The notes: a model not told the origin generated them from the letters alone. A DNA stretch of 64,000 bases from a virus (IMGVR_UViG_3300021255_002251); one strand, 5' to 3'; numbered from the stretch's first letter, positions 1,652-36,194 are shown. Numbers and translations are program-made.

Positions 1652-3328
1652 CTAGATGCTATATGGATACCAGAGGTGAATCCCCGCATTTGATTCAGGC
1701 GAAGATGCCTCTATGATTGCCTGCAACGAGACTTCATTTCCCGTGGTGAACGTTGCATTGAATGTCCGCCACTTTCCATTCACCAGAATCGACGTGCCTG
1801 TCCCGTAGGTGGTGTTAGGCTGCGGAGTGATTGCAAGACTATACGGGACTACCTGGCAGTTGTTCAATCGCGCCACCCTAGCGAACGATTTGAGATGGGC
1901 TTCCATTGACGAGGTGTCCGCTCCATAATAGTTCACGTTGGTTCCGCCAGTTAAGTCAGCTATTGGATTGTCATCTTCGCCAGACCAACTCAAGAACAAG
2001 TAAATGTTCCTCGTGTTCTTGAATATCTTGACTAGCCCATTCTCCAAGCCTAGGAACATGGTCTTGGGCGGAATCACAGAATACCATCCTTGAGAGTTGA
2101 CCGCTATCATCGAAATCGGATTGATCGCATACTTGCTATAGAGCGACCGCAGGTCCATGTAAGGCGGCGTCATCTCTCCAAAAGACTGGACGAGAGGGCC
2201 TCCGCCGTATGTCTTCTGCACATTCCCCTCTATCGCCTCAAACGACGTGTTTTCTTCTGAAGTTATGTCTTCTAGGCACACATAGTTGCAGCAGCTATAG
2301 TCGGTCAAGACATGCCCGAAGACCTGCCCTTTCTCGAAAGCCTTGTTCGGTTCATATCGTATGAAGTCCTGTCCATTGAACCCAAACACCCACCTTCCGA
2401 CAGGAATGTTGCTCTTGATTCCGAGAGGGAAGGGGCAGAAGTCAGAGAGACGCTGCTCGAACAGTAGTTTCTGGTCTCTGTGCATCTCATCATAGTATGC
2501 AGACTTGCCGTATTCCATAGACAAGTCTTCGTTGTCGGTGAGCATCACTCCGCATTTCCGCCGTCTGGTCGCTACCGCTCGTATCGTGGTTTCACCGAAT
2601 TCATATTCAACAGTTATCGAAAGTGAATTGTTCGGAGCTCCGCCTATCTTGCGGCAGATTCCCTCTGGGTCGTAGAGCTTTAGCAAGAGCGTTTCGTCAT
2701 CTGCCACTCCATTTGTCGGCTCATTTGTGGAAACAACATAGTCGGCTATCGCATCAAACGACGTGTTCTCCGCCTTGGATATGTCCCTTGTGCATTTCCA
2801 GTTGCGAAGTATTCCCTCCTCTAGCCTGTCATACGAGAATATGTCGCCCTTGGCATAGGCGATTCCGCTCTTGTACACGTCGTTAAGTTCGTCTATGTTC
2901 GTTGTCCATCCGTATTCGCTAACGTACACAGACCACTTTGACAGGTTCTCTTCTCCTCCAACCCCGAACACGATTTCGAGATACCCAAGTATGTCGTCGA
3001 ACGAACTGCTGGTCTTCATCAGATAGAAAGCGCCCTTGAGGATTCGCCTGTATACTGACGTGACAATGAGACGGTCTTTCCCGTCTTCGTCCTTCACCGT
3101 AGGTCTTGGCACTCCGAGGAAGATTCCCCATACGGAACATCCAAATGCACCGCAAGTGTCTATTGCCAGAACCTTCTCCGTCCAGAACTGCCAGAACTGC
3201 TCCACGGCGCAATGGTAGAGAACCTGCATATGCTTCATCACGGACAATAGCCGAACAGCCCGGTCATACTGCCACAGGACGGTCTTGCCAAGGTTGTTCA
3301 GCGAATTGTCTATCTCGTGAATCTTCAT
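1652..3328 (-). CDS. DUF2612-like baseplate wedge protein with inserted/extra modules
   Basis: N-terminal LWQYD..RLL...FW...VLAIDTCGAFGCSVWGIFLGVPR is DUF2612-like; it sits directly downstream of baseplate J. Confidence 0.75.
   Translation of the reverse strand: MKIHEIDNSLNNLGKTVLWQYDRAVRLLSVMKHMQVLYHCAVEQFWQFWTEKVLAIDTCGAFGCSVWGIFLGVPRPTVKDEDGKDRLIVTSVYRRILKGAFYLMKTSSSFDDILGYLEIVFGVGGEENLSKWSVYVSEYGWTTNIDELNDVYKSGIAYAKGDIFSYDRLEEGILRNWKCTRDISKAENTSFDAIADYVVSTNEPTNGVADDETLLLKLYDPEGICRKIGGAPNNSLSITVEYEFGETTIRAVATRRRKCGVMLTDNEDLSMEYGKSAYYDEMHRDQKLLFEQRLSDFCPFPLGIKSNIPVGRWVFGFNGQDFIRYEPNKAFEKGQVFGHVLTDYSCCNYVCLEDITSEENTSFEAIEGNVQKTYGGGPLVQSFGEMTPPYMDLRSLYSKYAINPISMIAVNSQGWYSVIPPKTMFLGLENGLVKIFKNTRNIYLFLSWSGEDDNPIADLTGGTNVNYYGADTSSMEAHLKSFARVARLNNCQVVPYSLAITPQPNTTYGTGTSILVNGKWRTFNATFTTGNEVSLQAIIEASSPESNAGIHLWYPYSI
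2225..2885 (-). repeat. Two diverged ~45-aa modules inside the DUF2612-like gene (about 2740-2885 and 2225-2362)
   Basis: YKSGIAYAKGDIFSY...WKCTRDISKAENTSFDAI vs YEPNKAFEKGQVFGH...YVCLEDITSEENTSFEAI; DNA core cgc(a/c)tcaaacgacgtgtt is shared. Confidence 0.8.
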
Positions 3329-3345
3329 CCAACATCTACCCCCGT

Positions 3346-4602
3346 CTAGGTGATTTCGGTGATAGAAATGTTGTCGGCTATGGCATACGGAGTCTCATAG
3401 CCCATCATCTCCACGGAGTTGTCGGCGGGAATGTTGCTACCCTCCTTCTGCAGCCACACAGTCCCGATGCCGATGTTAAGGCGGTTGATGAGCTCGTTGG
3501 CTATCATCGTGCCGTACACGGTTCCGCCTACCCCTACGGAATCCACGTATTCGGAAATGACTTCCGCAATGTCGTTCGAGATGTTGTCTCCCGTGTACTT
3601 TCCGAATGAGTACGTGAGGTCTACCATGATGGCGGTTTTCTTCGCCTTGTAGAAATGGATAGTCTGCGAATAGCCGTTGTTGTATCCGTACTTCACCTCT
3701 CTGCTTATGAGAGTTGCTGCGGTAACGCCCTCATGCACCATTCCAACACCGATTGGCTTGGCCCTCGAAACTTCCTCCGCAATTTCGGCGAGAAGGTCGT
3801 TGGTTTCAATGCAGTCTATCCCGACAAATATGGAGTGCGGCGGAATCACAATGTCCTTCTTCACCATGTCGGTGCCGGTGTTGTTCTCGAGAATGCAGTT
3901 AGAGTAAACTCCGTCTAGCCTATTCAATGCGGAAACAAGGTGAGTGTTGAAACCAATTCCTACTGGGCGGGAAGTCATTATGCGGTTGCGGAAAGCCTCG
4001 TCCGTCTCTATGTCAGTACCGGTGTAAGTAGGGCTAATGTTCGTCACTCCGTTCCATCCCATCACGGAAGTCTGAATGGAGTTGACTGTACCCGCTGGTG
4101 CAACGATAGGTCCAGTCTGCGTTGCAGTTGCGGTGCCTATAGCGTAGTGCCGGCCCGTTGATTCCTCAACCTCGGCTCCAGTGTTGGTTATGGCGCTGTC
4201 GATGCTGAACATCTTTCCGTTTGAAGTGCTCATTATGAGAGAGCCAGCGGGAATAGTGGTCGTGCCCGTCACGTTGTCGGAGAAGTAGCACTTGATAGTA
4301 ATCTTGGTCTTTGTACCTGCTATCCGCTTCAAGTCGTATATCTGGGCTATCGCATCGAGATAGATTCCAGTAGCCTCGTTCACATTGAACTGGTTTGCGG
4401 TTTGGGCGGTAACGCCAAGAGTGGTCTTCACCACAACTGCGAAAGCTTCGATGAGACGTCCAACGGGAGTCTCGGCTGACAGGTCTATGTCCGTACCGAA
4501 TATCTCCTGAAACTTCTTCTGAATCCCTAGAAGAACGGACGAATCATTCGGGACGATTATGCCCGTACTCGTCTGGAAGTTGTATAGGTCGGTGTAGTCC
4601 AT
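3346..4602 (-). CDS. Baseplate J-like protein
   Basis: FGTDIDLSAETPVGRLI..., ATGIYLDAI, GPIVAPAGTVNSIQTSVMGWNGVTN, ETDEAFRNRI are typical baseplate J/gp47 motifs. Confidence 0.9.
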   Translation of the reverse strand: MDYTDLYNFQTSTGIIVPNDSSVLLGIQKKFQEIFGTDIDLSAETPVGRLIEAFAVVVKTTLGVTAQTANQFNVNEATGIYLDAIAQIYDLKRIAGTKTKITIKCYFSDNVTGTTTIPAGSLIMSTSNGKMFSIDSAITNTGAEVEESTGRHYAIGTATATQTGPIVAPAGTVNSIQTSVMGWNGVTNISPTYTGTDIETDEAFRNRIMTSRPVGIGFNTHLVSALNRLDGVYSNCILENNTGTDMVKKDIVIPPHSIFVGIDCIETNDLLAEIAEEVSRAKPIGVGMVHEGVTAATLISREVKYGYNNGYSQTIHFYKAKKTAIMVDLTYSFGKYTGDNISNDIAEVISEYVDSVGVGGTVYGTMIANELINRLNIGIGTVWLQKEGSNIPADNSVEMMGYETPYAIADNISITEIT

Positions 4603-4635
4603 GGTCGTTCAATTATTGCCCTAAAGGAAACGAAA

Positions 4636-6090
4636 TTACACCCAGTGAGCAGATACTTCATTGTAGTTCAATGAATGCCCGTTGACAGTCGTAGTTCCAG
4701 AGAAAGACGATTCTCCGCTAACCGAAAACTTCCCGGATATTTTAACCTGCTCTCCGGTTATCGCAACTTCCTTTTTGGCGTTTATTCTGATGTTGGCTTT
4801 CTCTGCCTCCAGACTGATATTAGCATTCTCTCCCTTTGATTTCACCTCGATATTAGCGTCCTTCGAAAGAGTGTCAACCTTTATGCTTGCGCCTTTCTTC
4901 TTCGCCATAATCGTGACATCTGAGGCCGTCACGAGATTTATCGCATTAGGCGCAGTAAGGTTAATCTTCTGCCCAGCAGCAAGATTGATTGTCTCTTCAG
5001 CAGATGCAGATACTGTTTTCGCAGCCACAGATGCCGTCTCCTCCGCAACTACCCTTGCTTCCTTTGCTGAAACATAGGCGTGCTCCGCACCCTTGATGTT
5101 CACGTCCTTCTGGGAGAAGATGTTCACCGCATCTGTCGTGTGGACATCCAACTGCCCATTCTCGAACGTCATGCTCACGGTCTTCTTGTTCTCTATGTCC
5201 ATGAGCCTCATCGTGAACTGATCTTCCTGCACGGAAGCGATGAAGTTTAGATTGTCCTTCGGATTGTCCTGACGTATGACGATTCCAGATTCCGTCCCTA
5301 TCGTTATGGAGGCATCTATCGGAGTGTCTTCCGTCATGTCGCTCACGGCGATTTCAACGGTGTCTCCAACTACCGAAACTTTGGAGGTGCGGCTACGCCC
5401 CTTTGCGTCATCTGGCTTTGTCTTGGTGCTGGATAGGACATAGGCTCCTCCACTTTTCTTCAGGACAATGGAAGAAGTCGTCTTCTGCTCATACCCATCT
5501 CCTTTCTGACCGCCGGCATCATCCTCATCTTCCGTGTCTATTGAAGAGCCGATATACAAGGCATCACCGATGGCCACTCCTGGGCTATCCTTGAAACGAT
5601 GTGTTTCCCATTTGCCCCAGTTGTCGGGAAGGAAGAATCCGTGCGACTGCGAGTTGATTATAGGTGTGTTTGGCTTCTGCTGGTAGGAATCCTCTATGAG
5701 AGAAATACCGCGATTTCCTTCGAGAACGGAGTTGGTAAGTCCTCCCTCTCTCTTTAGAAGCATAGTGTCTCTGTCGCTTGCAAACACCCATCCGGTATCG
5801 CCTATGTAGAGAGGGAAGTCTATGGTAAATCCGCCAGCCTGTATGTTCCTTACGGTTGTCTCGAAAGTCATCCTGCGGAGATATGTCCATTCGCCGTTGT
5901 AGAAAGCCTGCTTGACGAGCGGCATCACAATCGCCTTGTGCGTTGTCCTGTCGAAGGAATACACGCAGCAGGGGAAGCAAAACCTCATGCTCCTCATTAG
6001 CCCTTCTCCGAATGCCGTCATTGCAACCCGAAGGTCATTCGGGGCCATCGGAAAATCTGATACCGTAACTGGGGCCTCATCGTCTATCAT
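4636..6090 (-). CDS. Baseplate central spike / puncturing protein (Gp138-like N-terminus, long beta-helix)
   Basis: P..VYSFD....V.PLV...AGGFTIDFPLYIGDTG....DRD is a Gp138-like N-domain; the C-terminal half is repetitive and beta-strand rich. Confidence 0.8.
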   Translation of the reverse strand: MIDDEAPVTVSDFPMAPNDLRVAMTAFGEGLMRSMRFCFPCCVYSFDRTTHKAIVMPLVKQAFYNGEWTYLRRMTFETTVRNIQAGGFTIDFPLYIGDTGWVFASDRDTMLLKREGGLTNSVLEGNRGISLIEDSYQQKPNTPIINSQSHGFFLPDNWGKWETHRFKDSPGVAIGDALYIGSSIDTEDEDDAGGQKGDGYEQKTTSSIVLKKSGGAYVLSSTKTKPDDAKGRSRTSKVSVVGDTVEIAVSDMTEDTPIDASITIGTESGIVIRQDNPKDNLNFIASVQEDQFTMRLMDIENKKTVSMTFENGQLDVHTTDAVNIFSQKDVNIKGAEHAYVSAKEARVVAEETASVAAKTVSASAEETINLAAGQKINLTAPNAINLVTASDVTIMAKKKGASIKVDTLSKDANIEVKSKGENANISLEAEKANIRINAKKEVAITGEQVKISGKFSVSGESSFSGTTTVNGHSLNYNEVSAHWV

Positions 6091-6095
6091 GGAAC

Positions 6096-7019
6096 TTAAT
6101 CATCCTCTCTTGCGGAGCAGAAGTATCTGGTGTACCACTCCTGCCCCATAAAATGCCCCACATGCTGCTTCTTCACAATGTAGTATTTGCCGTTCGCCTG
6201 CTGGTTAAGCTCGCTTTTCAGGTCGAGGTGGCAGAGCTGATCGGAGATGCGCCCGTCCAAAAAGGTGGTGATGCATCCGCTAACCGCATCAACTCCTGTG
6301 ACGGAAAGGAGACCGCTATCCTTGTTTACCTTCACAATGTCATGCTGGACCTTTCTTTCCGCCTTGTCCAGACATTCTATGATTCTCGTCTTGTCTGACT
6401 TGTAGGAGCGGAGAATGAACTGCACCTTGTCTGATAAACTAGATGTAAGTTTAGCAATCACAGAGCTCAAGGTAGCCTTGTCTCCAAAATCAATTGACTT
6501 GGGCTCATTGTCGCTACTGATTAATTGATCCTCCGTGTTGTCTTCCCAGTCGAATTCTACCCCTTCCGTATCGGAGAACACATCACATATCGTTTGAAGA
6601 ATCTGCCTCATTGTAGAATTAGTAGCGGGAGGGACGATTGCTTCCCGACCGCCGAGAGGGTTATATTCCGACACTTTTAAGTTAAGCCACATCTGCGGTG
6701 GGGAGGTTACGCTCGCATACCATGCAAACCCATTAAATATCTCCACCATCCCGGCAGGGGAGAAGTACCCTGCATCCAGTTTGACGGGAACCAACTGGCT
6801 CAATGCATCGCCTCTCGGCATCGCTGCGAGAGATATGAACTCATGTATTGTCTTATGTCCAAGCCCGAGAATGGAGAGTGTTCCCTCTCTCGCCGTCTGC
6901 CCTCTGGCATACGTCACGTCAAACTTGATGTCCATCGCAGGCTTTCCGTCTTCAACCTCGAACGTCTGGTCTCCGATTGTTAGCCTGTATTTTCTTCCGA
7001 AATAGAGAGCATTAGCCAT
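6096..7019 (-). CDS. Baseplate hub protein
   Basis: FGRKYRLTIG...DIKFDV...GTLSILGL...VKLDAGY...IFNG pattern, position between small baseplate genes and spike. Start moved to the ATG at 7019. Confidence 0.7.
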   Translation of the reverse strand: MANALYFGRKYRLTIGDQTFEVEDGKPAMDIKFDVTYARGQTAREGTLSILGLGHKTIHEFISLAAMPRGDALSQLVPVKLDAGYFSPAGMVEIFNGFAWYASVTSPPQMWLNLKVSEYNPLGGREAIVPPATNSTMRQILQTICDVFSDTEGVEFDWEDNTEDQLISSDNEPKSIDFGDKATLSSVIAKLTSSLSDKVQFILRSYKSDKTRIIECLDKAERKVQHDIVKVNKDSGLLSVTGVDAVSGCITTFLDGRISDQLCHLDLKSELNQQANGKYYIVKKQHVGHFMGQEWYTRYFCSAREDD

Positions 7020-21717: not shown

Positions 21718-22812
21718 TTAAATACCGAAGAATCGGACAATACCGAGCGGCTGCTCCACAAACGTACCTGCCGTAGCATCCGAGTAGAGCTCGTAGAGGC
21801 CGCTTGCGCGAGGCACCGAACCCACGAGACGAACCGCCGCAGGAACGATCTGCTCCGCAACTGGGGAGCCAGCGAGCTCGTCCAGCTTGAGGTACATAAT
21901 GTTGTCGCCTGCGAGGGCATTGTCGAACTCGGGGATAACCACGAGGTCTGCCTTTGGCCAAGTGTCCGAGATGTACTTGCGGACGCTGATGCCGTAGGAG
22001 TTGACCTGGTTGAGGAACTGGTCGCAACCGAGGGCGATGCCGATTTTGAAGGCATGCTTGGACGGAATGAAGTTGCCAGCGCACTGCTTCTGGAGTTCGG
22101 CAACGGCCGTGTTGAGGTCGGTGACAATCTCATAGAAGTTCTTCTTCGACCACTCAGTCTCTCCAGCGCTGTTCTCTGGAACGGCGATGTAGGGATTGAG
22201 GTTGGGGTCGTTCAAGATACCGTAGGTCTTGTTGTACCCCAGGTTGTAGCCGAAGAAGGCAACCGCATTGGTGTTGAGCTTGAAGGCGAGGCCGAGTGCC
22301 GCGCGGTCGCTCTCGTATGCGGAGGACTTCTGACCGATGGCCGCAAGACGAGCCTCTTCCAAAGCACCCGTGAGGATACCCTGTGCGAAGCGTACGATGG
22401 TGCGGTCTTCCTGGTTGTAGTTGTACCGAGCGAGCGGTGCCTGAGCGTGGTCTCCGTAAGGACGAACCGCACCCGTGAGCTCACGCAGACGGAGGACGAC
22501 GCTTTCCTGATACCACTCTCCGTAGGTGGAGCGGCCGAGGAATTCATCGGCAGTCGTTGCCTGCGTCACAACCGTGATAATTTTGTTCATCCAGTGCTGG
22601 AGGAACTGCACGGGGACTTGGGCCGTTGGGTTGGTTACGCCTTGTGTAGGCATCGCATCCATGACGTACTTGACGCCGCTGGACTTGTCGTTGAACGATA
22701 CGCCCATCAGCGCAAGATTCTCCATCGTGCGCAGGTTCTCAGGGGCCTCGTCGAGGGCGAAGCCCTCTACCTTGACCTTGGGCATACGGAATTTGCATTC
22801 TGTGAAAGCCAT
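21718..22812 (-). CDS. Major capsid protein (DUF2184-like)
   Basis: VMDAM...PVQFLQHW...YGDHAQAP..YNY..EDRTIVRF..G....LEEAR...AFFGYN...TYGILNDPNL; high-expression codon bias. Confidence 0.9.
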   Translation of the reverse strand: MAFTECKFRMPKVKVEGFALDEAPENLRTMENLALMGVSFNDKSSGVKYVMDAMPTQGVTNPTAQVPVQFLQHWMNKIITVVTQATTADEFLGRSTYGEWYQESVVLRLRELTGAVRPYGDHAQAPLARYNYNQEDRTIVRFAQGILTGALEEARLAAIGQKSSAYESDRAALGLAFKLNTNAVAFFGYNLGYNKTYGILNDPNLNPYIAVPENSAGETEWSKKNFYEIVTDLNTAVAELQKQCAGNFIPSKHAFKIGIALGCDQFLNQVNSYGISVRKYISDTWPKADLVVIPEFDNALAGDNIMYLKLDELAGSPVAEQIVPAAVRLVGSVPRASGLYELYSDATAGTFVEQPLGIVRFFGI

Positions 22813-28900: not shown

Positions 28901-30926
28901 CTGCCGTAATGTCGAAAGCGGGATCTACCTTGAACTCTATCGTTGTCGCAGACGGCCCTACGCTTATGGATTCTATGTCTCCTACGGGTAGCCCTTGAGC
29001 TCCTAGGCTCTCCTGCAGGACGGAGGCAACCTGGTCCCCGAAAGCCTTGTCCGCATCAAAGTCCTTTGGCGGGTCAAGTATGGAAATCGGTGGCTTCCCT
29101 CCCTTGTAGTCGTTCGGAAGCGGCTTGAATGGTTCACCGAGTTTTGGCTTGTCCATCTCTCCGAGTTCCTTGGAATACTTCTCCTTCCAAGCCTGGAACT
29201 GCTTGACCGCCGCCATGTTGTCCTTCGGAGACTTTGCCTGCGAAATCATGTCCTGTATGACGGCAAGCTCCATCTTCGCATCGTCGGGCAGCCCTTCCTT
29301 CGCTGCATAGTTGGCTATGGTGTTCTTGATAAGAGCGCCCGATATGCCGTCTCTCACCATTTCACCATTCTCAGAGCGCTTCATCTGGTCCCAAGCACCA
29401 GAGATTCTATCCCATCCGGTAATGATTCCCTCTCCGCGAAGACCCGCCATGAAGGAAGAAAGCATCGTGCGGAGGAGCCCCTTGCCAGAGACATCGGTAT
29501 AGACGGTGCCGCCTACCTGATACTTGTTCTTCCCTACTTGGAACTCCGAGTCGTTAGGGGTAGGTGTCCCCTGATGTGCAGGCGCTCCGCCCTTGTTCTT
29601 GTTGGGTGGAGTTGTAGGGGGTGTTTCCGAAGGTGGAGTAGTAGGTGGAGTCTCAGATGGAGGTTCGCTACCATCGCCTCCTTCACCTCCGCCGCCGCCC
29701 TCTCCAGAACCATCGGCTGGTGGCGAAGGAGGTGTAGGAGATTCACTTCCCAATGGTGTTTCTTTGACTTCTTCACTAGCAGAACTTTCAGAAGAAACGT
29801 CACTCATTCCTTCGTCGCCAAAGAACATCCTCTGCAATGCTTGGTACTGGTTCGCCAAGTCCTTGAACTCTGGGCTATCGTCCTTTAATCCGCCAACAAG
29901 CCACTCTATGTCAACCATCTTCTGGAAGATTTCTTTCTTCTCTGGATTGGCCGCAAGAACCATCGCCTCATCAGGCTTTATATTTCTCGAACTCTTTCCA
30001 TCGCTTGTTGTTATTGTCTCGACTTGTGCTGCCGATTCACCAATTTGTCCGCTCTCACCACCAATCTCTTTTTGGGACGGTTCAAAATGAACAGTCCCAT
30101 CCCCATGGTCTACTTCAACATAATCTGGGTGCTGTTCCTTGAATAGATTTGCTCCTGCCCCATCCTTCTTGAAATCAACAGACCTGCCCTTCTCTTTAAG
30201 TCTAGCTTCTGCCGCTTCATGGATTCCATCTCCGAAAGCTTCAAACCCTTTTTTAATGGCTGCGGCTGTTTCTTCCTGTGGAGACGATGTTATCGTCCCG
30301 TCCTCTACCTTGTCCTTCAGTTCCTGTAGAGACTCTTCGGCTAGTGTGTTCCCAGACGCCGCCTGCTCCGTAAGATTCTCCAATATCCCCTCTTGAACCG
30401 TTGTCTGTGCTGGCAGTTCTCCAGCCTCCGTCTGGACCATCTTTGTCTCAGGAAGCATCTCTGACGGAATTTGCTCCATCATCTGCGGATTCTGTGCTAT
30501 CTGCTGCGCCTGCTGCTCTAGCATCTCTGGGCTTTGCGGTTGCGGCTCCATTCCCTCTTGCGGCTGTGCTCCACCTTGCCCGAACTTGGCCGCCTCTGCG
30601 GTGTGCATCCCGATAGCCTGCTGCATTGCTGTTGTAGGATCTAATCCCCGAGACTGCTCGAGTTCCTTCGCCATCTTTTTGATGTACGGGCACCTCTCTG
30701 GGTGTCCGTTCTTCGTGGCTTCGCATCCTTCTTGGATATGCTGTGAAAGAGACTTGTCGCCCCCAGAAGTAGGATTTGCACCAGGGGCCGCAGCCGCATT
30801 CTTCTTCAATCCGCTAGGTGCATTTGGCTTCTGCGGAAGGGTGTTCTTCGGCATATTGTTTCCCGGCATGGCATCCATCACGAATGCCTCGTCAAAAGCC
30901 TGCGCAAATGCTTCTTTAACTGTCAT
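25986..30926 (-). CDS. Giant putative virion-internal protein containing an FtsK/SpoIIIE DNA-translocase motor (about 27950-29040)
   Basis: Alpha-domain-like SISVGPSATTIEFK..AVQVTN; Walker A PHTIVTGESGSGKS; LVLLDPK; Walker B HVLMTFDE; LGRSVGINCLLATQR; IKAN..SIAF. No TM segment or gamma domain seen. Confidence 0.85.
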   Translation of the reverse strand: MTVKEAFAQAFDEAFVMDAMPGNNMPKNTLPQKPNAPSGLKKNAAAAPGANPTSGGDKSLSQHIQEGCEATKNGHPERCPYIKKMAKELEQSRGLDPTTAMQQAIGMHTAEAAKFGQGGAQPQEGMEPQPQSPEMLEQQAQQIAQNPQMMEQIPSEMLPETKMVQTEAGELPAQTTVQEGILENLTEQAASGNTLAEESLQELKDKVEDGTITSSPQEETAAAIKKGFEAFGDGIHEAAEARLKEKGRSVDFKKDGAGANLFKEQHPDYVEVDHGDGTVHFEPSQKEIGGESGQIGESAAQVETITTSDGKSSRNIKPDEAMVLAANPEKKEIFQKMVDIEWLVGGLKDDSPEFKDLANQYQALQRMFFGDEGMSDVSSESSASEEVKETPLGSESPTPPSPPADGSGEGGGGGEGGDGSEPPSETPPTTPPSETPPTTPPNKNKGGAPAHQGTPTPNDSEFQVGKNKYQVGGTVYTDVSGKGLLRTMLSSFMAGLRGEGIITGWDRISGAWDQMKRSENGEMVRDGISGALIKNTIANYAAKEGLPDDAKMELAVIQDMISQAKSPKDNMAAVKQFQAWKEKYSKELGEMDKPKLGEPFKPLPNDYKGGKPPISILDPPKDFDADKAFGDQVASVLQESLGAQGLPVGDIESISVGPSATTIEFKVDPAFDITAANSKKVKESLKGALGTPVSKIEYADGKPHVVAVQVTNLKMRDVSFSSCIASDEWKDFADKAGLPVTLGKDSSGKNVNLDLAKQPHTIVTGESGSGKSVFLMAAINSLEMAKTPDEARLVLLDPKNEFRSQDGSPHLLYPRAQKPQDIANVVSSLKALMDDRIAKIGGAVKDFDPTKNEFQGNSDRNITEYNKLHPEEKMPHVLMTFDEVASIMKNPEVSDRVKQDLSQIMALGRSVGINCLLATQRADVASIPGDIKANAPASIAFKAAPDDAKASAAAKSLAGSGDFIMTDKEGKQTRGRGCFISDKEVAAIPAYYRDNMKGAPTPTDGGGDSGGGEGPQLPQEHLDAIAAAVKKGNSVSMVAEEGFMDAFKNAFPSDWEITEENVNGEKHWKASPPKKNSGGEKGNESSSIPTANLQVKSANAAFPTQKELPDGEVEIPIATYAADKGYEWQGRPEGIDIEDLNAIVEAGAEKVRNSDGIIPDSFVVRVNLGNGKVAFMTETLTKSGFDQAGRSSVLNRVAFVNEEMANTNGDKIVNHLLSMQIPEKGSDPSLKDNKIKVKFEEVKEAKAPLGSSESPTQETPKEENTDWRKDGSRDDAIATLSKVRDAAKAKAWDTYNQGEDTADAQKKLQKALEKADSDFNTKMALVDMKFPPPEDESMDGGSPEGESEEGESPTPEENGDDDEDSPAATMKDIEETFNAERERIEKALSKPNTKVRDKQKLREERKALKKRFNEAKAKFEAGGSAEDMLNIFEPEEEKPAGEEATKTQEAAPESPDEDKAEAEQQEQAQKDEKLRSTVREQKFYGAPGFKATSKVTPQQVKQMENLLPAGWEFVTDNQFKAPARTKNGVVFIRHPSNGSYGRIFIKTDEKGKEYIEPEAQIDVDTTHPDYQGFVKNEDGTYGLTEEGKKAEAEYKHVRKYSKNEKERAEVQKKFNRIRFGHDEAPDNMTIVANAVANVLEKMEKRT
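29605..29666 (-). repeat. Pro/Thr linker repeat (PSETPPTT x2)
   Basis: SEPPSETPPTTPPSETPPTTPP in the 1646-aa protein, synonymously diverged at DNA level. Confidence 0.7.
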
Positions 30927-30962: not shown

Positions 30963-33900
30963 TCATGTACTCTTCGCCCCTAAGATTTGAGCAACCGCTC
31001 GTTCCATCTCTTCACGACTTCCAAGAGACTTAAGTTTTGAGAGAAGTTCGTCTGGATTGACATCTGGATGGAGGCGCTTCATCATATCAATGAAACTGGA
31101 AGCACCTGAGACATCGCCTCTGATGTCGTCACCAGAATCAAAGCGGCGGGAGAGCGGAATCACATTGCCGTTGTCGTCGTATGTCACGGGGTCGGCGGAC
31201 TTGACCTGCCTTGCTGACATCACCGCATATTCTATAACTTTTCCCATCTCATCTTCTGGGTGCTCACCAAAATATCCATCGTATTTCAGCAGCGACATTC
31301 CCTTAGGAGTGATTTTCAAAACTCCGTCATCCCCGAATTCAAATTCATTTTCCCCCGTTTTTATTGCATCCTCATATTGTTTTGTGAATTCATCGATCCG
31401 ATCAGAGCTCCTGCCATGCAGAGCCTTTCTACCTCCGTCATTCATGTCTAACGGATTCATTAGATTTACAAAACACGAAATTTTGTTCTTTCCGTATTGA
31501 GGTTGCTCTCTATCAGCAAAAAACAATCCAGGCAATCCATCCCATTCAATAGGCCCTTCCCAAGGAACAGCGGGAACTGTCCAAGAGGAATCTGTATTAT
31601 GGAAAACGATTTTTGGCAATCCATCATCTGCAACCACCTTTGTATTGGGGAATGCCCTCCCCGCAACCTCACGAACCATCTTCGCAGCGGTCTCCATGTC
31701 CCCCTTCTTCACCGCCTCCATGTATGCCGCATCCTCTGCGGCGGACACAATCGGCTTCTTGACTATGCTCTTCCTCTCTCCCCCATCTTCTCTTTTCTCA
31801 CCTTTGCTGATACTGCCCAATGTTTTCCCGCTCGTCATCTGTTTCACCATGAAGTCAGAAAACTCATCGGTTGACATCTGGTCTATGCCAGATGTATCCA
31901 CATTGTTAAGCCCAGCCGCAGACACTAGCCCTCTCCATGCCTCTTTAACTACTCCCCAGAACCGCTGATACCACCTTCGCCCTCCCCGCGACTTGTTAAT
32001 CTCTTCTATCGCTTTTGAAGTCTTATGCCCTATGATATGAGCCCACACCTCTTCTCTCTGTACTTCCTTGTCTTCCCCTTCGTAGTTAGCCTTTACTTCG
32101 TCCCATACTGGTTTCGCCGTAGGTGAATCGACAACTTCGTTCATCTTCTTGAGAAGGGAATCGTTGCCATTTCTTGCCATCTGCTCAGCATACTGCCATG
32201 TCGCATGTCCGCAAAGTTCATGCCCTATCGTGTCTGCATCCGCCCCTTCATATAACACAACCTCATTAGTATTCCGATTATAAGTCCCTACAACTTCGCC
32301 ATTATTATCACGAAAACTTATGACTTCTCCCGATTCTCCTTTTTTTTCGTCTCCCCCCTTTACACCCGAAGGCATATCTGGTATAATTTCTCCCAGTTGT
32401 TCGGCGGAGAAATCTTCCTCCATAAGAACACCATGGGTCTTGAGGATTGAGTCTCTTGGCAATTGCAGCCTCTGAGCAGATTTCTTCAAGCCCTTTTTGC
32501 TTACATATCTCAAATATCCTTCGTCTATCCACTGCTGCAAATTATCAGGCTTCTGCCCGTAAGCCGAGGCAATTGTGTTTTCCCTAGCAGTACCTGATGC
32601 CTCTCTATCTAGTTTCAATGGGACAACAGATTTTGCATTCCCATGCTTATCTAAAAGATTCGTCAGAATTACTATCGCATTGGGGTCTGACTTTGAATCA
32701 AAAACGGCAACAGGATTATCTAGATCAAGTAGAAGGTTACGAAGTTCCGAAATCGGTATCTCATGGTACTCATAAAGGCTATTCCTTATATTCCCTATCA
32801 TCTTATGTATGGTGCCGCCCATAATCGTGATGGGTCGGTCTGGGACTCCTAATCTCCTTAGCACTGCAGGAGTGTGTTCTAACAGTGTATGGTGCCTTGT
32901 AGCATCTGCCCCCGCTGTTTTGTGTTCAAAGGCATCTAGGATTCGATTCCAATTGTCCTGCTCACTTTGTCTAATGCTCTTGCGGGTATTTGAAGAATCC
33001 ATTTCATGTGGTTTGTCAGAAAACCTAATGGAGACTCCTTTAATGAAGGATTTTAGTTTATTGGCGATTTTAGCTAAGTTCTTTCGGCTTGAATTCTCTT
33101 TAGACAATTCGTCAGCCTTATCTGTTTCGGTCTCTGTCTTCAACTTATTGCGGAACTTGCAGGTATCTCCTTCATGGTAGCCGCCGGGGTGGTGTCGCCT
33201 ATCGTGTTCCTGCAATGTCTGGTCTTTCAGGGTGTCGGCATCCTCCACCAATGCTTCATACAATTCATCCTGTGCAGTCTTGTCCTTCTCTATCTTACCG
33301 CTCTCCATTATGCGGGCAAACTCCGCAGCCATCTCTTCTGGTGAATCTAGCCTCGTTAGATAGGCCAAAATAGCCATTGGATCTATGTCTGAATGGTGCT
33401 TATTCATCAGTTCCTGATAGTCGAACATCTTCTGCCCATCCACATACTTCTTGTCTATCCGTATGTTGTCATTTCGAAAGGAGACATAATCCCACCCAAC
33501 TTCATTACCATCCTTAATTGGCTTCTTATAACTATCAACTGGATATTTGATGCCATCTATGCCAGAATTCGCTAAGGCTATAGATGCATCTTTAGGGGTT
33601 CCAAAATGCGAAACCATAAACCGATACAATTCTTCACCCGTTCTTTCTCCAATCTGCTGTTGCCATGCGTCAATTAATTTCTGCCTTTTCTCCTCATTAT
33701 ATTTTCCTGAACCCTTCAACTTCTCCAAAAATGGATTCACTATTGCTTCTATTGCTCTTTTCTTGTTGTCCTCACTTATAGGATCGTACCAACTTAACAA
33801 GTGGCTTTCGTCTCCTTCTGGTCTGTTTGTAAAAAATGTCTGTTCATAAATCCATTCGTGGGGCATGTCATATTCATGCCCATGGTCCTTAAGTTCTTGT

Positions 33901-35372
33901 AGTATCTTCTTATTTTTATCAACCCGGATCCCGTCATCTATATCCATCTGTATCATTTTCATTGCTTTAGAAAGACTCCCCCAATGTTCTAAAGCCTTTG
34001 ATGCATCTATCTCTACTGTATCTTTTGGTTGCCTACCTTGTTTAGTTATAACGGCAGAGAAGGTCAGATATGCTTCATCGATCTTTCGCTCTAATGTTTT
34101 TTGTCTTGCTAATTTAGCATATCCTTCTGCAACCTCTTTTTTATTACTCCCATAAAGTCCCCATCCATAAACCTGATTCCCTTCCCCAGTTCCTATTGCC
34201 AATAAACTCGGCTTGTCATAGTTCGCCGCACTCCCCGTGAATATGTGCGAAATCCCCATTGGCTTTGGAGGCTGCACTTTCGCTTCTTCTTTTCCATTTT
34301 CTTGCTTCCCAGACACATCACCGCGAATGTCGTCACCATCGTCAAAACGGCGGGACAGAGGAACGACCTTACCGTCATCATCATACGTCACAGGGTCAGC
34401 AGACTTTATTTTACTCGGGTCCCAGAGTGCAATAGACTTACCCCCTTCATCTCTTACCATGAAACTATCATGTCCATTATCTATAGCTATTGCTTTACTA
34501 TATTGATCAGGGCCTAAATCATGCCCTTTATAATACCCTCCCCAAGCGCTCCAGTCTGGTACAGATTGGAATCTCCTTTGTGAGATTGTTGGAAGAGGCT
34601 GCTTTTTATATGTTCCATCGTTCTCATTCCACCCAGCACCATATGCTATAGACAATGCTTCATGATATGCATCTTGTTCTTCTTTCGGAAGCATCACCTC
34701 TTGTTGTCTAAGTTCTTCCATTTCGCTTTCAGTTTGAACGAAGTCTGGTAGATTATCATAAAATTCTCTTGCCTCCTTATCTGGAGAAACATTATGAATG
34801 CTTCTGCAATTCAAAAATACAGGAATTATATGAAACTTATTGACTTTGCTATCTTCAGGCCGAGGCTGCTCTCCATACCTTTCGTTTGCACCTGCTATAG
34901 CTCCATCTCTCGCACCTTCTTCTGTAGGAGCAAAAAATATACTACCTCTACTAGGGACAATGAATTTTTTTATGTCACTGCTAGTACCATGATAAAAAAT
35001 CTTTGGATTACCTTTTTCGTCTACAACTATGGTTTCAGGAAATGCCCTAGCCGCCACTTCCATAACCATTTTGGCGGCGGTCTCCATGTCCCCCTTCTCT
35101 ACTGCTTCAATGTAGGCGGCATCCTCTTCTGGGGTGACTATGGGTTTCTTCAATGGTTTTTCGGTAGCTATACTTTCTTTCGGGGCGGAATTAGGATTTT
35201 CAATATCCGCCTTGTCAGATTCAGTCTCTTTAGAAAGTCTCTCCCTAAACTTGCATGTGTCCGTTTCAGGATTGAATCCATGTGGGTGCTTTTCCTTGTC
35301 GTGTTCAGCCAAAGACTTTTCTTTAGGCATAGCATCAGAAACATATGTCTCGCCTAACAAGGCAGACACCAA
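30963..35372 (-). CDS. Polyvalent protein: ART-PolyVal-like x2, further ART-like module, MuF-C/PBECR-like domain, zincin-like HExxGH
   Basis: VDEKGNPKIFYHGT and VADDGLPKIVFHNT followed by (I/V)KSADPVTYDD.G.V.PLSRRFD; IGTGEGNQVYGWGLY; TPAVLRRLG..DNPVAVFDS..NTIASAYG..WIDEGYLRY; DTIGHELCGH. No ATG or clear RBS at the track start, so the true start is probably via frameshift from 35399..36079. Confidence 0.85.
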   Translation of the reverse strand: MVSALLGETYVSDAMPKEKSLAEHDKEKHPHGFNPETDTCKFRERLSKETESDKADIENPNSAPKESIATEKPLKKPIVTPEEDAAYIEAVEKGDMETAAKMVMEVAARAFPETIVVDEKGNPKIFYHGTSSDIKKFIVPSRGSIFFAPTEEGARDGAIAGANERYGEQPRPEDSKVNKFHIIPVFLNCRSIHNVSPDKEAREFYDNLPDFVQTESEMEELRQQEVMLPKEEQDAYHEALSIAYGAGWNENDGTYKKQPLPTISQRRFQSVPDWSAWGGYYKGHDLGPDQYSKAIAIDNGHDSFMVRDEGGKSIALWDPSKIKSADPVTYDDDGKVVPLSRRFDDGDDIRGDVSGKQENGKEEAKVQPPKPMGISHIFTGSAANYDKPSLLAIGTGEGNQVYGWGLYGSNKKEVAEGYAKLARQKTLERKIDEAYLTFSAVITKQGRQPKDTVEIDASKALEHWGSLSKAMKMIQMDIDDGIRVDKNKKILQELKDHGHEYDMPHEWIYEQTFFTNRPEGDESHLLSWYDPISEDNKKRAIEAIVNPFLEKLKGSGKYNEEKRQKLIDAWQQQIGERTGEELYRFMVSHFGTPKDASIALANSGIDGIKYPVDSYKKPIKDGNEVGWDYVSFRNDNIRIDKKYVDGQKMFDYQELMNKHHSDIDPMAILAYLTRLDSPEEMAAEFARIMESGKIEKDKTAQDELYEALVEDADTLKDQTLQEHDRRHHPGGYHEGDTCKFRNKLKTETETDKADELSKENSSRKNLAKIANKLKSFIKGVSIRFSDKPHEMDSSNTRKSIRQSEQDNWNRILDAFEHKTAGADATRHHTLLEHTPAVLRRLGVPDRPITIMGGTIHKMIGNIRNSLYEYHEIPISELRNLLLDLDNPVAVFDSKSDPNAIVILTNLLDKHGNAKSVVPLKLDREASGTARENTIASAYGQKPDNLQQWIDEGYLRYVSKKGLKKSAQRLQLPRDSILKTHGVLMEEDFSAEQLGEIIPDMPSGVKGGDEKKGESGEVISFRDNNGEVVGTYNRNTNEVVLYEGADADTIGHELCGHATWQYAEQMARNGNDSLLKKMNEVVDSPTAKPVWDEVKANYEGEDKEVQREEVWAHIIGHKTSKAIEEINKSRGGRRWYQRFWGVVKEAWRGLVSAAGLNNVDTSGIDQMSTDEFSDFMVKQMTSGKTLGSISKGEKREDGGERKSIVKKPIVSAAEDAAYMEAVKKGDMETAAKMVREVAGRAFPNTKVVADDGLPKIVFHNTDSSWTVPAVPWEGPIEWDGLPGLFFADREQPQYGKNKISCFVNLMNPLDMNDGGRKALHGRSSDRIDEFTKQYEDAIKTGENEFEFGDDGVLKITPKGMSLLKYDGYFGEHPEDEMGKVIEYAVMSARQVKSADPVTYDDNGNVIPLSRRFDSGDDIRGDVSGASSFIDMMKRLHPDVNPDELLSKLKSLGSREEMERAVAQILGAKST
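31095..35150 (-). repeat. Duplicated cassette flanks in the polyvalent gene (cassette 1 about 34305-35150; cassette 2 about 31095-31765)
   Basis: KKPIV...EDAAY.EAV.KGDMETAAKMV.EVA.RAFP and KSADPVTYDD.G.V.PLSRRFD.GDDIRGDVSG each occur twice around divergent cores. Confidence 0.9.
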
Positions 35373-35398
35373 TTCGTCGCTAACTCTCTTTTCAGAAG

Positions 35399-36079
35399 CT
35401 ACTTTTTTTTTTCGTCTACAGCAGAACCATTCATCTGCTTGTCTTCGTTCTGAAGATAATTTAGCGCTACAGAAAGGGCGGTATCATACTTCTCATCGGT
35501 CTTTTGTTCATCTTCTCCGCCGTCCTTATCTTCTTGATTCGATTCTGTGGCCGATTCCTTCCATTCTGGCGGCTTCTCTTCTGCTGGGGGTGCATCTGTG
35601 CCCCCTTCGTTTTGCGGCTGCTCCTGTGCCTCTTCAATGGATTCCGTATTAGTCTGCTCTTCTCCGTCCTTAGTCTCTTCCGTCTGTTCTGACGATACTT
35701 CTGAGGTTCCAGTCTGTTCGCCGCCATCTCCATCTGCTCCCCCAGTCCCATCTTTCTCAAACCTCAATGTACCAGTTGGCTGCTGTCCGCCATTTATCTT
35801 ATCAAGAAGCTCCTGATAGTGCTTGATTGCATTCTCCTTATCGCTATTGTCAATAAGATACTGCAAATCTTCCGCCGTCATTGACTTCTCATATTCGTCC
35901 CTCAAATCACGATACTCCTGAAAGTCTTCTGGCTTGAACTGGTCATGAAACTTTGAGAAGTAAAATGAAATAGCAAGCCGCTCCATTGCTCCACCTGGGG
36001 CATTCATGAAAATGTCCTTCCAAGTCGGGTTCTGCATGAACTCCATTACGGCTTCGGTGACTTTATTAGGGTCAATCAT
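35399..36079 (-). CDS. Hypothetical protein, probable N-terminal part of the polyvalent protein
   Basis: Conserved-looking N-terminus (NPTWKDIFMNAPGG..RLAISFYFS) plus an acidic tail; ends GAA AAA AAA AAG TAG. Confidence 0.7.
   Translation of the reverse strand: MIDPNKVTEAVMEFMQNPTWKDIFMNAPGGAMERLAISFYFSKFHDQFKPEDFQEYRDLRDEYEKSMTAEDLQYLIDNSDKENAIKHYQELLDKINGGQQPTGTLRFEKDGTGGADGDGGEQTGTSEVSSEQTEETKDGEEQTNTESIEEAQEQPQNEGGTDAPPAEEKPPEWKESATESNQEDKDGGEDEQKTDEKYDTALSVALNYLQNEDKQMNGSAVDEKKK
35402..35412 (-). other. A10 run / A AAA AAG slippery site
   Basis: The -1 frame from the run (AAA AAA AAA GTA GCT TCT GAA AAG AGA GTT AGC GAC GAA TTG GTG) is open and is the frame of 30963..35372. Confidence 0.7.
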
Positions 36080-36161: not shown

Positions 36162-36194
36162 AAAAAACCGCTCCCCGATTGGCAGGGGAGCGGT
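36162..36194 (-). terminator. Intrinsic terminator after dnaN
   Basis: Minus strand accgctcccc-tgccaatc-ggggagcggt followed by ttttt. Confidence 0.9.

Follow-up and report, generated by a model that had tools for sequence, protein, structure and literature searches.

An A10 run between a leader gene and a polyvalent-protein gene as a candidate programmed recoding site in a phage head operon

Genes and signals at the leader/polyvalent junction

The DNA considered here (the window) is a stretch of 64,000 nucleotides (nt) from a virus (IMGVR_UViG_3300021255_002251) and belongs to an IMG/VR virus record of 223 kb. Its minus strand carries a leader gene (35399..36079; all positions are in the numbering of the whole window) and, in another frame of the same strand, a gene for a polyvalent protein (30963..35402). 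A run of ten A (A10; 35403..35412, T10 on the plus strand) lies at the junction of these two genes. This run is probably a programmed recoding site, from which a free leader and a minor leader-polyvalent fusion of about 1705 amino acids (aa) would be obtained from one initiation event.

The leader most likely starts at ATG 36079, with GGAAGGAAA located 8 nt ahead of it, and then consists of 226 aa, the length that gene callers assign to its relatives as well. An earlier interpretation of this DNA (the sequence-only reading) gave it 228 aa, which is the length of the open reading frame (ORF) when counted from TTG 36085. The last codons of the leader are GAC (35416-35414), GAA (35413-35411), AAA (35410-35408), AAA (35407-35405), and AAG (35404-35402), and the stop codon TAG (35399..35401) is found immediately 3' of the run. 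Between 35483 and 30963, the run included, the -1 frame is free of stop codons, and it is translated as KKKVASEKRVSDELVSALLGETYVSDAMP. Both the leader end and the open passage into the polyvalent ORF were thus as the sequence-only reading had described them. The third frame closes three codons past the run (TKKKSSF*). Hence, the features of a slippage site are present, namely an A/T run of at least nine, a second frame that is open into a long ORF, and a nearby stop in the 0 frame. In addition, a heptamer A_AAA_AAG (35408-35402) stands in phase with the leader frame, a feature of sites of -1 programmed ribosomal frameshifting (PRF).

The leader gene encodes three distinguishable parts. An N-terminal domain (35759..36079; residues 1-107) is predicted to be a six-helix bundle (pLDDT of about 90), is followed by a disordered acidic linker rich in E, T, G, and Q (35492..35758; residues 108-196), the length of which varies among relatives, and the protein ends with a conserved C-terminal helix, DEKYDTALSVALNYLQNE (35426..35491), which is restricted to long leaders. 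The function of the leader was not revealed by database comparison, as there was no match to a Pfam or PHROG family, no Foldseek match in PDB or BFVD at E <= 0.001, and no usable feature match in the ESM Atlas, the structural rows of which were weak (TM < 0.5). A hairpin resembling an intrinsic terminator (36167..36194, minus strand; a 10-bp stem with eight G-C pairs, and a T run) follows the gene for the DNA polymerase III beta-clamp, indicating that the leader begins a new or attenuated transcription unit. A promoter-like match inside the leader gene (35510-35483; 9/12) was no better than shuffled sequence and was not used.

The polyvalent coding region comprises 1479 aa when counted from the run and 1469 aa when counted from TTG 35372. 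The open -1 stretch 35373..35483 contains no ATG, GTG, or TTG, and its 3' part (35402-35373) encodes VASEKRVSDE, which matches the EKxVxDELV motif that is conserved in uninterrupted relatives. The earliest start codons in this frame are TTG 35372 and then GTG 35369 (35367..35372), which are the sole candidates for independent initiation and lie inside the conserved DELV motif; the earliest in-frame ATG encodes the M of the DAMP motif further downstream. Upstream of TTG 35372, no better Shine-Dalgarno sequence was found than AAGAGAG at a distance of 11 nt. Most genes of the window have an AGGAG-type Shine-Dalgarno sequence 6-10 nt ahead of an ATG, and the polyvalent gene is the sole large gene of the operon lacking both. 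The absence of an ATG and of a good ribosome-binding site, as claimed by the sequence-only reading, was hereby confirmed. No stop/start overlap is present in the window, as GTA follows the run and 26 nt separate TAG (35401-35399) from TTG 35372.

No obvious stimulatory element accompanies the run. A hairpin (35345..35369, minus strand), consisting of a 10-bp stem with one bulge, lies about 31 nt 3' of the run, with GTG 35369 at its 5' base, and a stronger hairpin occupies the equivalent place in one of the related loci (L008). This hairpin is too far away for canonical stimulation of -1 PRF. When the 100 nt that follow the run and the 68 nt that precede it were folded for four loci, no structure was conserved at a functional distance; indeed, neither a hairpin or pseudoknot 5-9 nt downstream of the run nor a Shine-Dalgarno-like GGAGG or AGGAG upstream of it was found in the window, structure being compared in the four loci.

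The A10 run is the lone homopolymer of nine or more in the window and one of three in the whole genome, the other two being C10 and T9 (genome positions 204258-204267 and 189798-189806, respectively, both outside the window). As a first-order Markov model predicts about 0.9 A/T runs of at least ten for this genome, the run alone is not significant; what lends it weight is where it lies and that relatives conserve it. The choice of lysine codons speaks against a neutral run. The genes of the window use AAA 185 times and AAG 716 times, which represents a preference of about 4:1 for AAG (AAA accounting for about 20%), and one of their eight KKK tripeptides uses AAA AAA, which is that of the junction (AAA AAA AAG). 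The phage encodes 38 tRNA genes in two arrays (genome positions 170727-172787 and 210256-213197), with two copies of tRNA-Lys(CTT) and none of tRNA-Lys(TTT), although the set of the host may differ; a tRNA-Lys(CTT)-only set agrees with the preference for AAG.

Conservation and displacement of the run in relatives

Related loci were found in IMG/VR and JGI metagenomes (L001/L005, L008, L009, the group L002/3/6/7/10, and three short fragments). No related locus was retrieved from a phage GenBank collection with blastn and tblastn, and none of the GTDB genome contigs had two alignments to the locus. The DNA was read for four independent loci, namely the window, L001/L005, L008, and L009, the relatives having a long leader and a protein identity of 59-71%. 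The junction contains exactly A10 in all four of them, in spite of diverged flanks (GACG-, CGAG-, ACGG-, and AACG-).

The frame layout around the run is not uniform among these loci. The window and L009 have a -1 layout, in which one extra base is needed to reach the polyvalent frame. L005 has a +1 layout, requiring one base fewer or two more. In L008, both parts are in frame, yielding a fusion of 661 aa, and its other two frames stop 0-3 codons past the run. Moreover, the run occupies two non-homologous positions, about 40 nt apart, one per sublineage (window/L008 versus L009/L005). In L009 and L005, it lies directly 3' of ..YLQ(N/D)E and aligns to an interrupted A-rich stretch of the other sublineage (GAAGACAAG in the window, GAAGAAAAG in L008); conversely, the A10 of the window and L008 aligns to ACGAAAAC of L009. 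The leader frame of the window and L008 continues for about 12 codons past the old position of the run ((D/E)KQM(N/G)...), and these codons appear, in our reading of the alignment, to correspond to the beginning of the polyvalent ORF of the L009 type. The occurrence at two non-homologous places implies that the run was lost at one of them and re-made at the other, each time with a frame break. We take this re-made run with its frame break as the strongest sign that selection keeps that combination.

Leader homologues form about 119 clusters in public metagenomes, over which the N-terminal domain is invariant, and 27 of these clusters bear the C-terminal helix (..YDTALSVALNYLQNE..). A K run is found 0-2 codons ahead of the stop in 20 of the 27, with the endings DEKKK*, NEKKK*, KKKQ*, KKNK*, and KKKK*, the 20 clusters being drawn from ENA, Logan, NCBI, and JGI assemblies. 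Most of the clusters available as protein only thus probably have the -1 layout. One fused cluster (P0122, with the arrangement of L008) came out of a search of leader-containing proteins of 400-2000 aa, a search that gives weak evidence of absence for further ones. The sequence-only reading had asked whether homologues are fused or keep the heptamer. Fusion was found in this one cluster, A10 is kept in all four loci, and an in-phase heptamer occurs in the window as well as in L009. Judged from this pattern, the run is maintained as a nucleotide element. Five other clusters (P0011, P0054, P0057, P0060, and P0073) possess the helix and end with ..(P/S)KTN* without a terminal K run, with an internal GEKKKD upstream. 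The leader variants P0093 and P0077 have end stretches (..TAQAERRML.., ..ELANIRKFMGIK) resembling the N-terminus MTAAERFVKRML of the polyvalent proteins P0130, P0134, and P0141, which hints at more read-through or fusion variants at the leader/polyvalent boundary.

The recurrence of this ending bears on two explanations that concern the DNA itself. The first is an assembly or sequencing error, the true run being A11, or a freshly broken pseudogene. Homopolymers are indeed prone to error, and one added A fuses the frames. However, four data sources together provide at least 20 clusters with the same out-of-frame ending, and A10 is present at four loci, so that an error is very unlikely indeed; the whole genome has three homopolymers of nine or more, and the downstream ORF runs without a break for 1469 codons. 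The second is phase variation, in which replication slippage between A10 (OFF) and A11 (ON) would confine the cargo to a heritable subpopulation, an ON/OFF switch that the sequence-only reading had put forward. Tracts of nine or more are mutable and the layouts fit a change in tract length, as exemplified by an inferred A8 next to A10 in the L005 sublineage and by the G + A10 of L008, which is equivalent to A11. Yet, the four DNA loci all have A10 without any spread in length, and at least 21 out-of-frame clusters stand against one fused cluster, whereas about one third would be in frame under neutrality (P ~0.002 by our binomial estimate). Furthermore, a 4.4-kb ORF that is OFF nearly everywhere should decay, but it is intact in the window and its relatives. 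Phase variation is therefore improbable, and the switch is disfavoured, as out-of-frame layouts prevail across more than 20 independent populations.

Relatives without an interruption indicate how the segment just past the run is translated. In P0137, P0141, and P0143, one ORF holds both the leader helix (SALEAALNYLQNE; ALNYLQNE) and the polyvalent body, with ..EKSVKDELVEALV.. coming 30-40 residues after the helix and the polyvalent body following it. Residues 91-208 of P0141 align with residues 2-122 of the -1 frame of the window (E 5e-29), and this alignment covers the ten codons ahead of TTG 35372. A motif (E/T)K(S/T)(V/A)xD(E/S)L(V/Y)xAL occurs in about 15 relatives, and SEKRVSDELV of the window fits it. 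The changes between the window and L008 within this motif seem to include synonymous ones (GAA/GAG, GTT/GTA, and TTG/CTA). As the segment ahead of TTG 35372 is constrained as protein yet lacks a start codon, its ribosomes must come from the leader frame.

Short leaders make up 92 clusters (151-170 aa) and have no C-terminal helix. In L002 (IMGVR_UViG_3300028888_001839, 3001-6447), the gene after a leader of 151 aa is a homologue of the FtsK-containing giant that lies downstream of the polyvalent gene in the window, and a polyvalent gene is absent. The N-terminus of this homologue, MTIKEAFAQAFDEAFVMDAMP, is near-identical over its first 21 residues to that of the window gene at 30926 (30747-30926). 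Hence, L002 and L003 were ruled out as relatives in which the polyvalent gene would have its own ATG and ribosome-binding site. The absence of a polyvalent gene after a short leader indicates that this gene is an addition, comparable with a cassette-like insert, between the leader and the FtsK gene. From the same gene order, the leader is seen to exist as a stand-alone protein in relatives too.

Routes to a fusion protein and their alternatives

Programmed recoding at A10 is probably the best explanation of these observations. Default decoding would yield the free 226-aa leader, ending with ...DEKKK, and a minority of decoding events would pass into the -1 frame at the run, either because the messenger RNA (mRNA) carries one extra A or because the ribosome moves back one base on A_AAA_AAG. 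The resulting fusion would count 226 + 1479 = 1705 aa, a refinement of the size of about 1700 aa given by the sequence-only reading, with the junction ...DEKKK-VASEKRVSDELV... and the predicted junction stretch ...SAVDEKKKVASE..., which would be identical by both routes. In the simplest reading, the cargo would lack an initiation signal of its own, and its dose would equal leader initiation times slip rate. By analogy with known slippage genes, the fusion may represent roughly 15-30% of the product. A minor fusion beside an abundant free leader, one of the two possibilities raised by the sequence-only reading, hence became the most plausible outcome, considering A10 in four of four loci, the K-run endings in 20 of 27 clusters, the single fused cluster, and the uninterrupted relatives that cover the segment ahead of TTG 35372.

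Slippage of the RNA polymerase is modestly favoured over ribosomal slippage as the way into the -1 frame. This preference has three grounds, namely the retention of A10 in the +1 locus (L005) and the in-frame locus (L008), where it is useless as a -1 heptamer, the lack of a stimulator-like element 5-9 nt downstream of or just upstream of the run, and the presence of two tRNA-Lys(CUU) in the phage, the slipperiness of AAG in Escherichia coli being tied to tRNA-Lys(UUU) alone. A purely ribosomal -1 shift of the dnaX/IS type, helped by the adjacent TAG, is possible but doubtful; it is a sub-case of recoding, and its probability is a share of that of recoding. In its favour, the window and L009 have the heptamer in phase, relatives with an inferred A8 would retain an in-phase A_AAA_AAC, no heptamer is more prone to shifting in E. 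coli than A_AAA_AAG (PMC5009743), and the rarity of AAA in the phage may allow pausing. However, A10 is kept in L005, which would require a +1 or -2 shift, and in L008, where no shift is required; the same missing signals and tRNA set count against it as well. The emphasis that the sequence-only reading placed on the classic ribosomal heptamer was consequently reduced, although the heptamer itself stands in phase, and polymerase slippage at an A/T run, its other proposal, was judged the better fit. Both routes are inseparable by sequence, as a -1 shift and an mRNA with an extra A yield the same protein.

The main rival explanation consists of two ordinary genes, the polyvalent gene being initiated independently or coupled to the leader by termination and reinitiation. 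For the window, the start codon would be TTG 35372 or GTG 35369, and for L009 and L005 it would be the GTG after the run; the run itself would be a tolerated mutable tract or an A-rich initiation enhancer, and any fusion a by-product. Several observations pull in this direction and weigh against programmed recoding. In the L009/L005 sublineage, a GTG stands right after the run, and L009 has a GTGA stop/start overlap, which is usual for coupled genes. Five related polyvalent proteins (P0125, P0276, P0283, P0286, and P0128) are called from a start at that GTG by gene callers. In the window, TTG 35372 and GTG 35369, with the weak purine-rich stretch 11 nt upstream, could be an independent start. 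Coupled genes most often overlap in a -1 layout, and the variation between -1, +1, and 0 looks as though the layout were irrelevant. Distant relatives (P0139 and P0144) begin 5-7 residues ahead of the D(E/S)L motif, and a relative with 94% identity is annotated at NCBI as two separate proteins. The FtsK giant has its own ATG and a propeptide of 17 aa, so the leader is not obviously needed for targeting. In addition, the layouts of all clusters beyond the four loci were deduced from C-terminal residues, and three KKNK* clusters would imply A8, a poor slippage tract for RNA polymerase.

Against two ordinary genes, the window has no start codon near the run, and its TTG and GTG lie inside DELV, without AGGAG and at the base of a hairpin. 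A protein motif is retained in the ten codons ahead of TTG, and the run is located 27-37 nt 5' of this codon, which is not the distance of a ribosome-binding site. Moreover, A10 in four of four loci, despite the 4:1 preference for AAG and with the run re-made at a second position, is hard to square with a neutral tract. Independent or coupled initiation is thus rather unlikely as the explanation of the junction, in spite of the points in its favour, and programmed recoding is preferred.

Recoding may be extended tentatively to the whole family. A10 could be a fixed-length decoder of three frames that was moved and re-framed (-1, +1, and 0), allowing each lineage to set its own ratio of free leader to fusion via polymerase slippage. 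The leader would then be a Gag-like module, removable by a protease, that brings the polyvalent enzyme into the capsid, and the system would parallel Gag-Pol in a phage.

The junction is a real, conserved, recoding-type junction and represents a new example of a known mechanism, not a new kind of mechanism. The closest analogue is found in tssM1 of Citrobacter rodentium and tssM3 of Yersinia pseudotuberculosis. The tssM1 gene contains A11 with a stop a few bases on, gives mRNAs with 10-15 A's, and produces 20-25% of full-length protein, whereas slippage in tssM3 gives a shorter protein and the full-length form predominates (PMC4256274). As in the window, a long A run precedes an early stop in a structural gene of an injection machine, without flanking signals and with two length variants, and the reversed ratio of tssM1 and tssM3 parallels that of the window and L008, the full-length form being expected to predominate in L008. 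Unlike tssM1, the two parts joined in the window are separate genes elsewhere, the leader also standing alone beside a different gene, the site belongs to a phage head operon, and the extension would be a multi-enzyme cargo of 1479 aa. In the type III secretion system of Shigella, slippage at A/T runs fuses overlapping frames of mxiE, mxiA, spa13, and spa33 with efficiencies of 15-55% (cited in PMC4256274 and PMC5009743). These are likewise genes of a protein-injection apparatus, but they are bacterial regulatory or structural genes without a protease-removable leader.

The ribosomal systems are less similar. The dnaX gene and the IS elements of E. coli share the same heptamer, in phase and close to a 0-frame stop. 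However, dnaX has a Shine-Dalgarno-like element upstream and a stem-loop downstream, and it relies on a single tRNA-Lys(UUU); AAG is highly slippery in E. coli because this is the only tRNA-Lys (PMC5009743). In the window, by contrast, neither signal is found, and the phage encodes tRNA-Lys(CUU). In the gpG/gpGT of phage lambda and the Gag-Pol of retroviruses and Ty elements, recoding close to the end of an abundant assembly protein produces a rarer form with a C-terminal extension, in a fixed proportion. The extension of Gag-Pol consists of enzymes that are packaged as cargo and released by a protease, and a similar packaging and cleavage may be assumed for the polyvalent protein. The shifts of lambda and Gag-Pol are ribosomal, at defined heptamers, and the assembly role of the leader is putative.

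Possible packaging and dosage of the polyvalent cargo

The polyvalent protein of the window contains ART-PolyVal in two stretches (best 131-339), MuF_C/PBECR (877-973), and a zincin-like motif HELCGH. These modules and the head-gene context are shared with the polyvalent proteins of phages and conjugative elements surveyed before (Iyer et al. 2017, PMC5512222), and, as in that class, several unrelated effector domains are combined in one protein and the neighbours are virion or packaging genes. Indeed, genes for the FtsK-containing giant, a DUF2213 protein, and the capsid protein lie downstream of the polyvalent gene. In the survey (PMC5512222), the terms frameshifting and slippage have no occurrence and expression through a recoding site is not described. 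The present junction would be the first indication that we could find of a phage polyvalent protein being expressed through a slippage site.

A motif YVSDAMP (35328..35348, minus strand) occurs 22 residues past the run in the polyvalent frame. The form (Y/F)V(M/S)DAMP is common to three proteins, as the capsid protein has YVMDAMP (residues 48-54; window 22651-22671) and the FtsK giant has FVMDAMP (residues 15-21; window 30864-30884), and a similar amphipathic stretch precedes it in the FtsK giant (EAFAQAFDEAF) and in the polyvalent protein (ELVSALLGETY). Amphipathic stretch and DAMP motif together are a candidate capsid-targeting propeptide with a prohead-protease site. The fusion would accordingly enter the prohead, where the prohead protease would cut YVSD|AMP and strip everything N-terminal to it, thereby freeing the cargo and discarding the fused leader. 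The site would set a low ratio of cargo to leader, as in Gag/Gag-Pol or tssM1. A targeting role for the leader like that in Gag-Pol is possible but unsupported, since the FtsK giant manages with its short propeptide. The propeptide-like motif is duplicated in tandem (..EKSVGDELVCALIGKAYAKD..TVQDELVEALVMDAD..) in some relatives (L008 3173-3330, P0144, and P0173), and it occurs again in the middle of the polyvalent protein of the window (DELYEALVEDADT, around residue 712), a repeat that hints at an internal cut yielding two cargo units.

Gene callers split this locus and assign arbitrary starts to the cargo, such as MSALLGE..., or MPKEK... in the 94%-identical relative, which sits in an NCBI metagenome-assembled genome (MAG). 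As a consequence of such split calls, the likely primary product is missing from databases. This MAG is labelled Prevotella. Genes of Bacteroidota generally lack Shine-Dalgarno sequences, and the AGGAG-rich starts of the window fit a Bacteroidota/Prevotella host poorly, so that the host assignment is uncertain.

Polyvalent proteins are large arrays of enzymes that are injected and used in the first minutes of infection. If the conserved slippage site is true, at least one family of phages of about 220-275 kb would dose its polyvalent cargo by decoding infidelity, and a case from a phage head operon would join the few bacterial genes for which transcriptional slippage has been proven.

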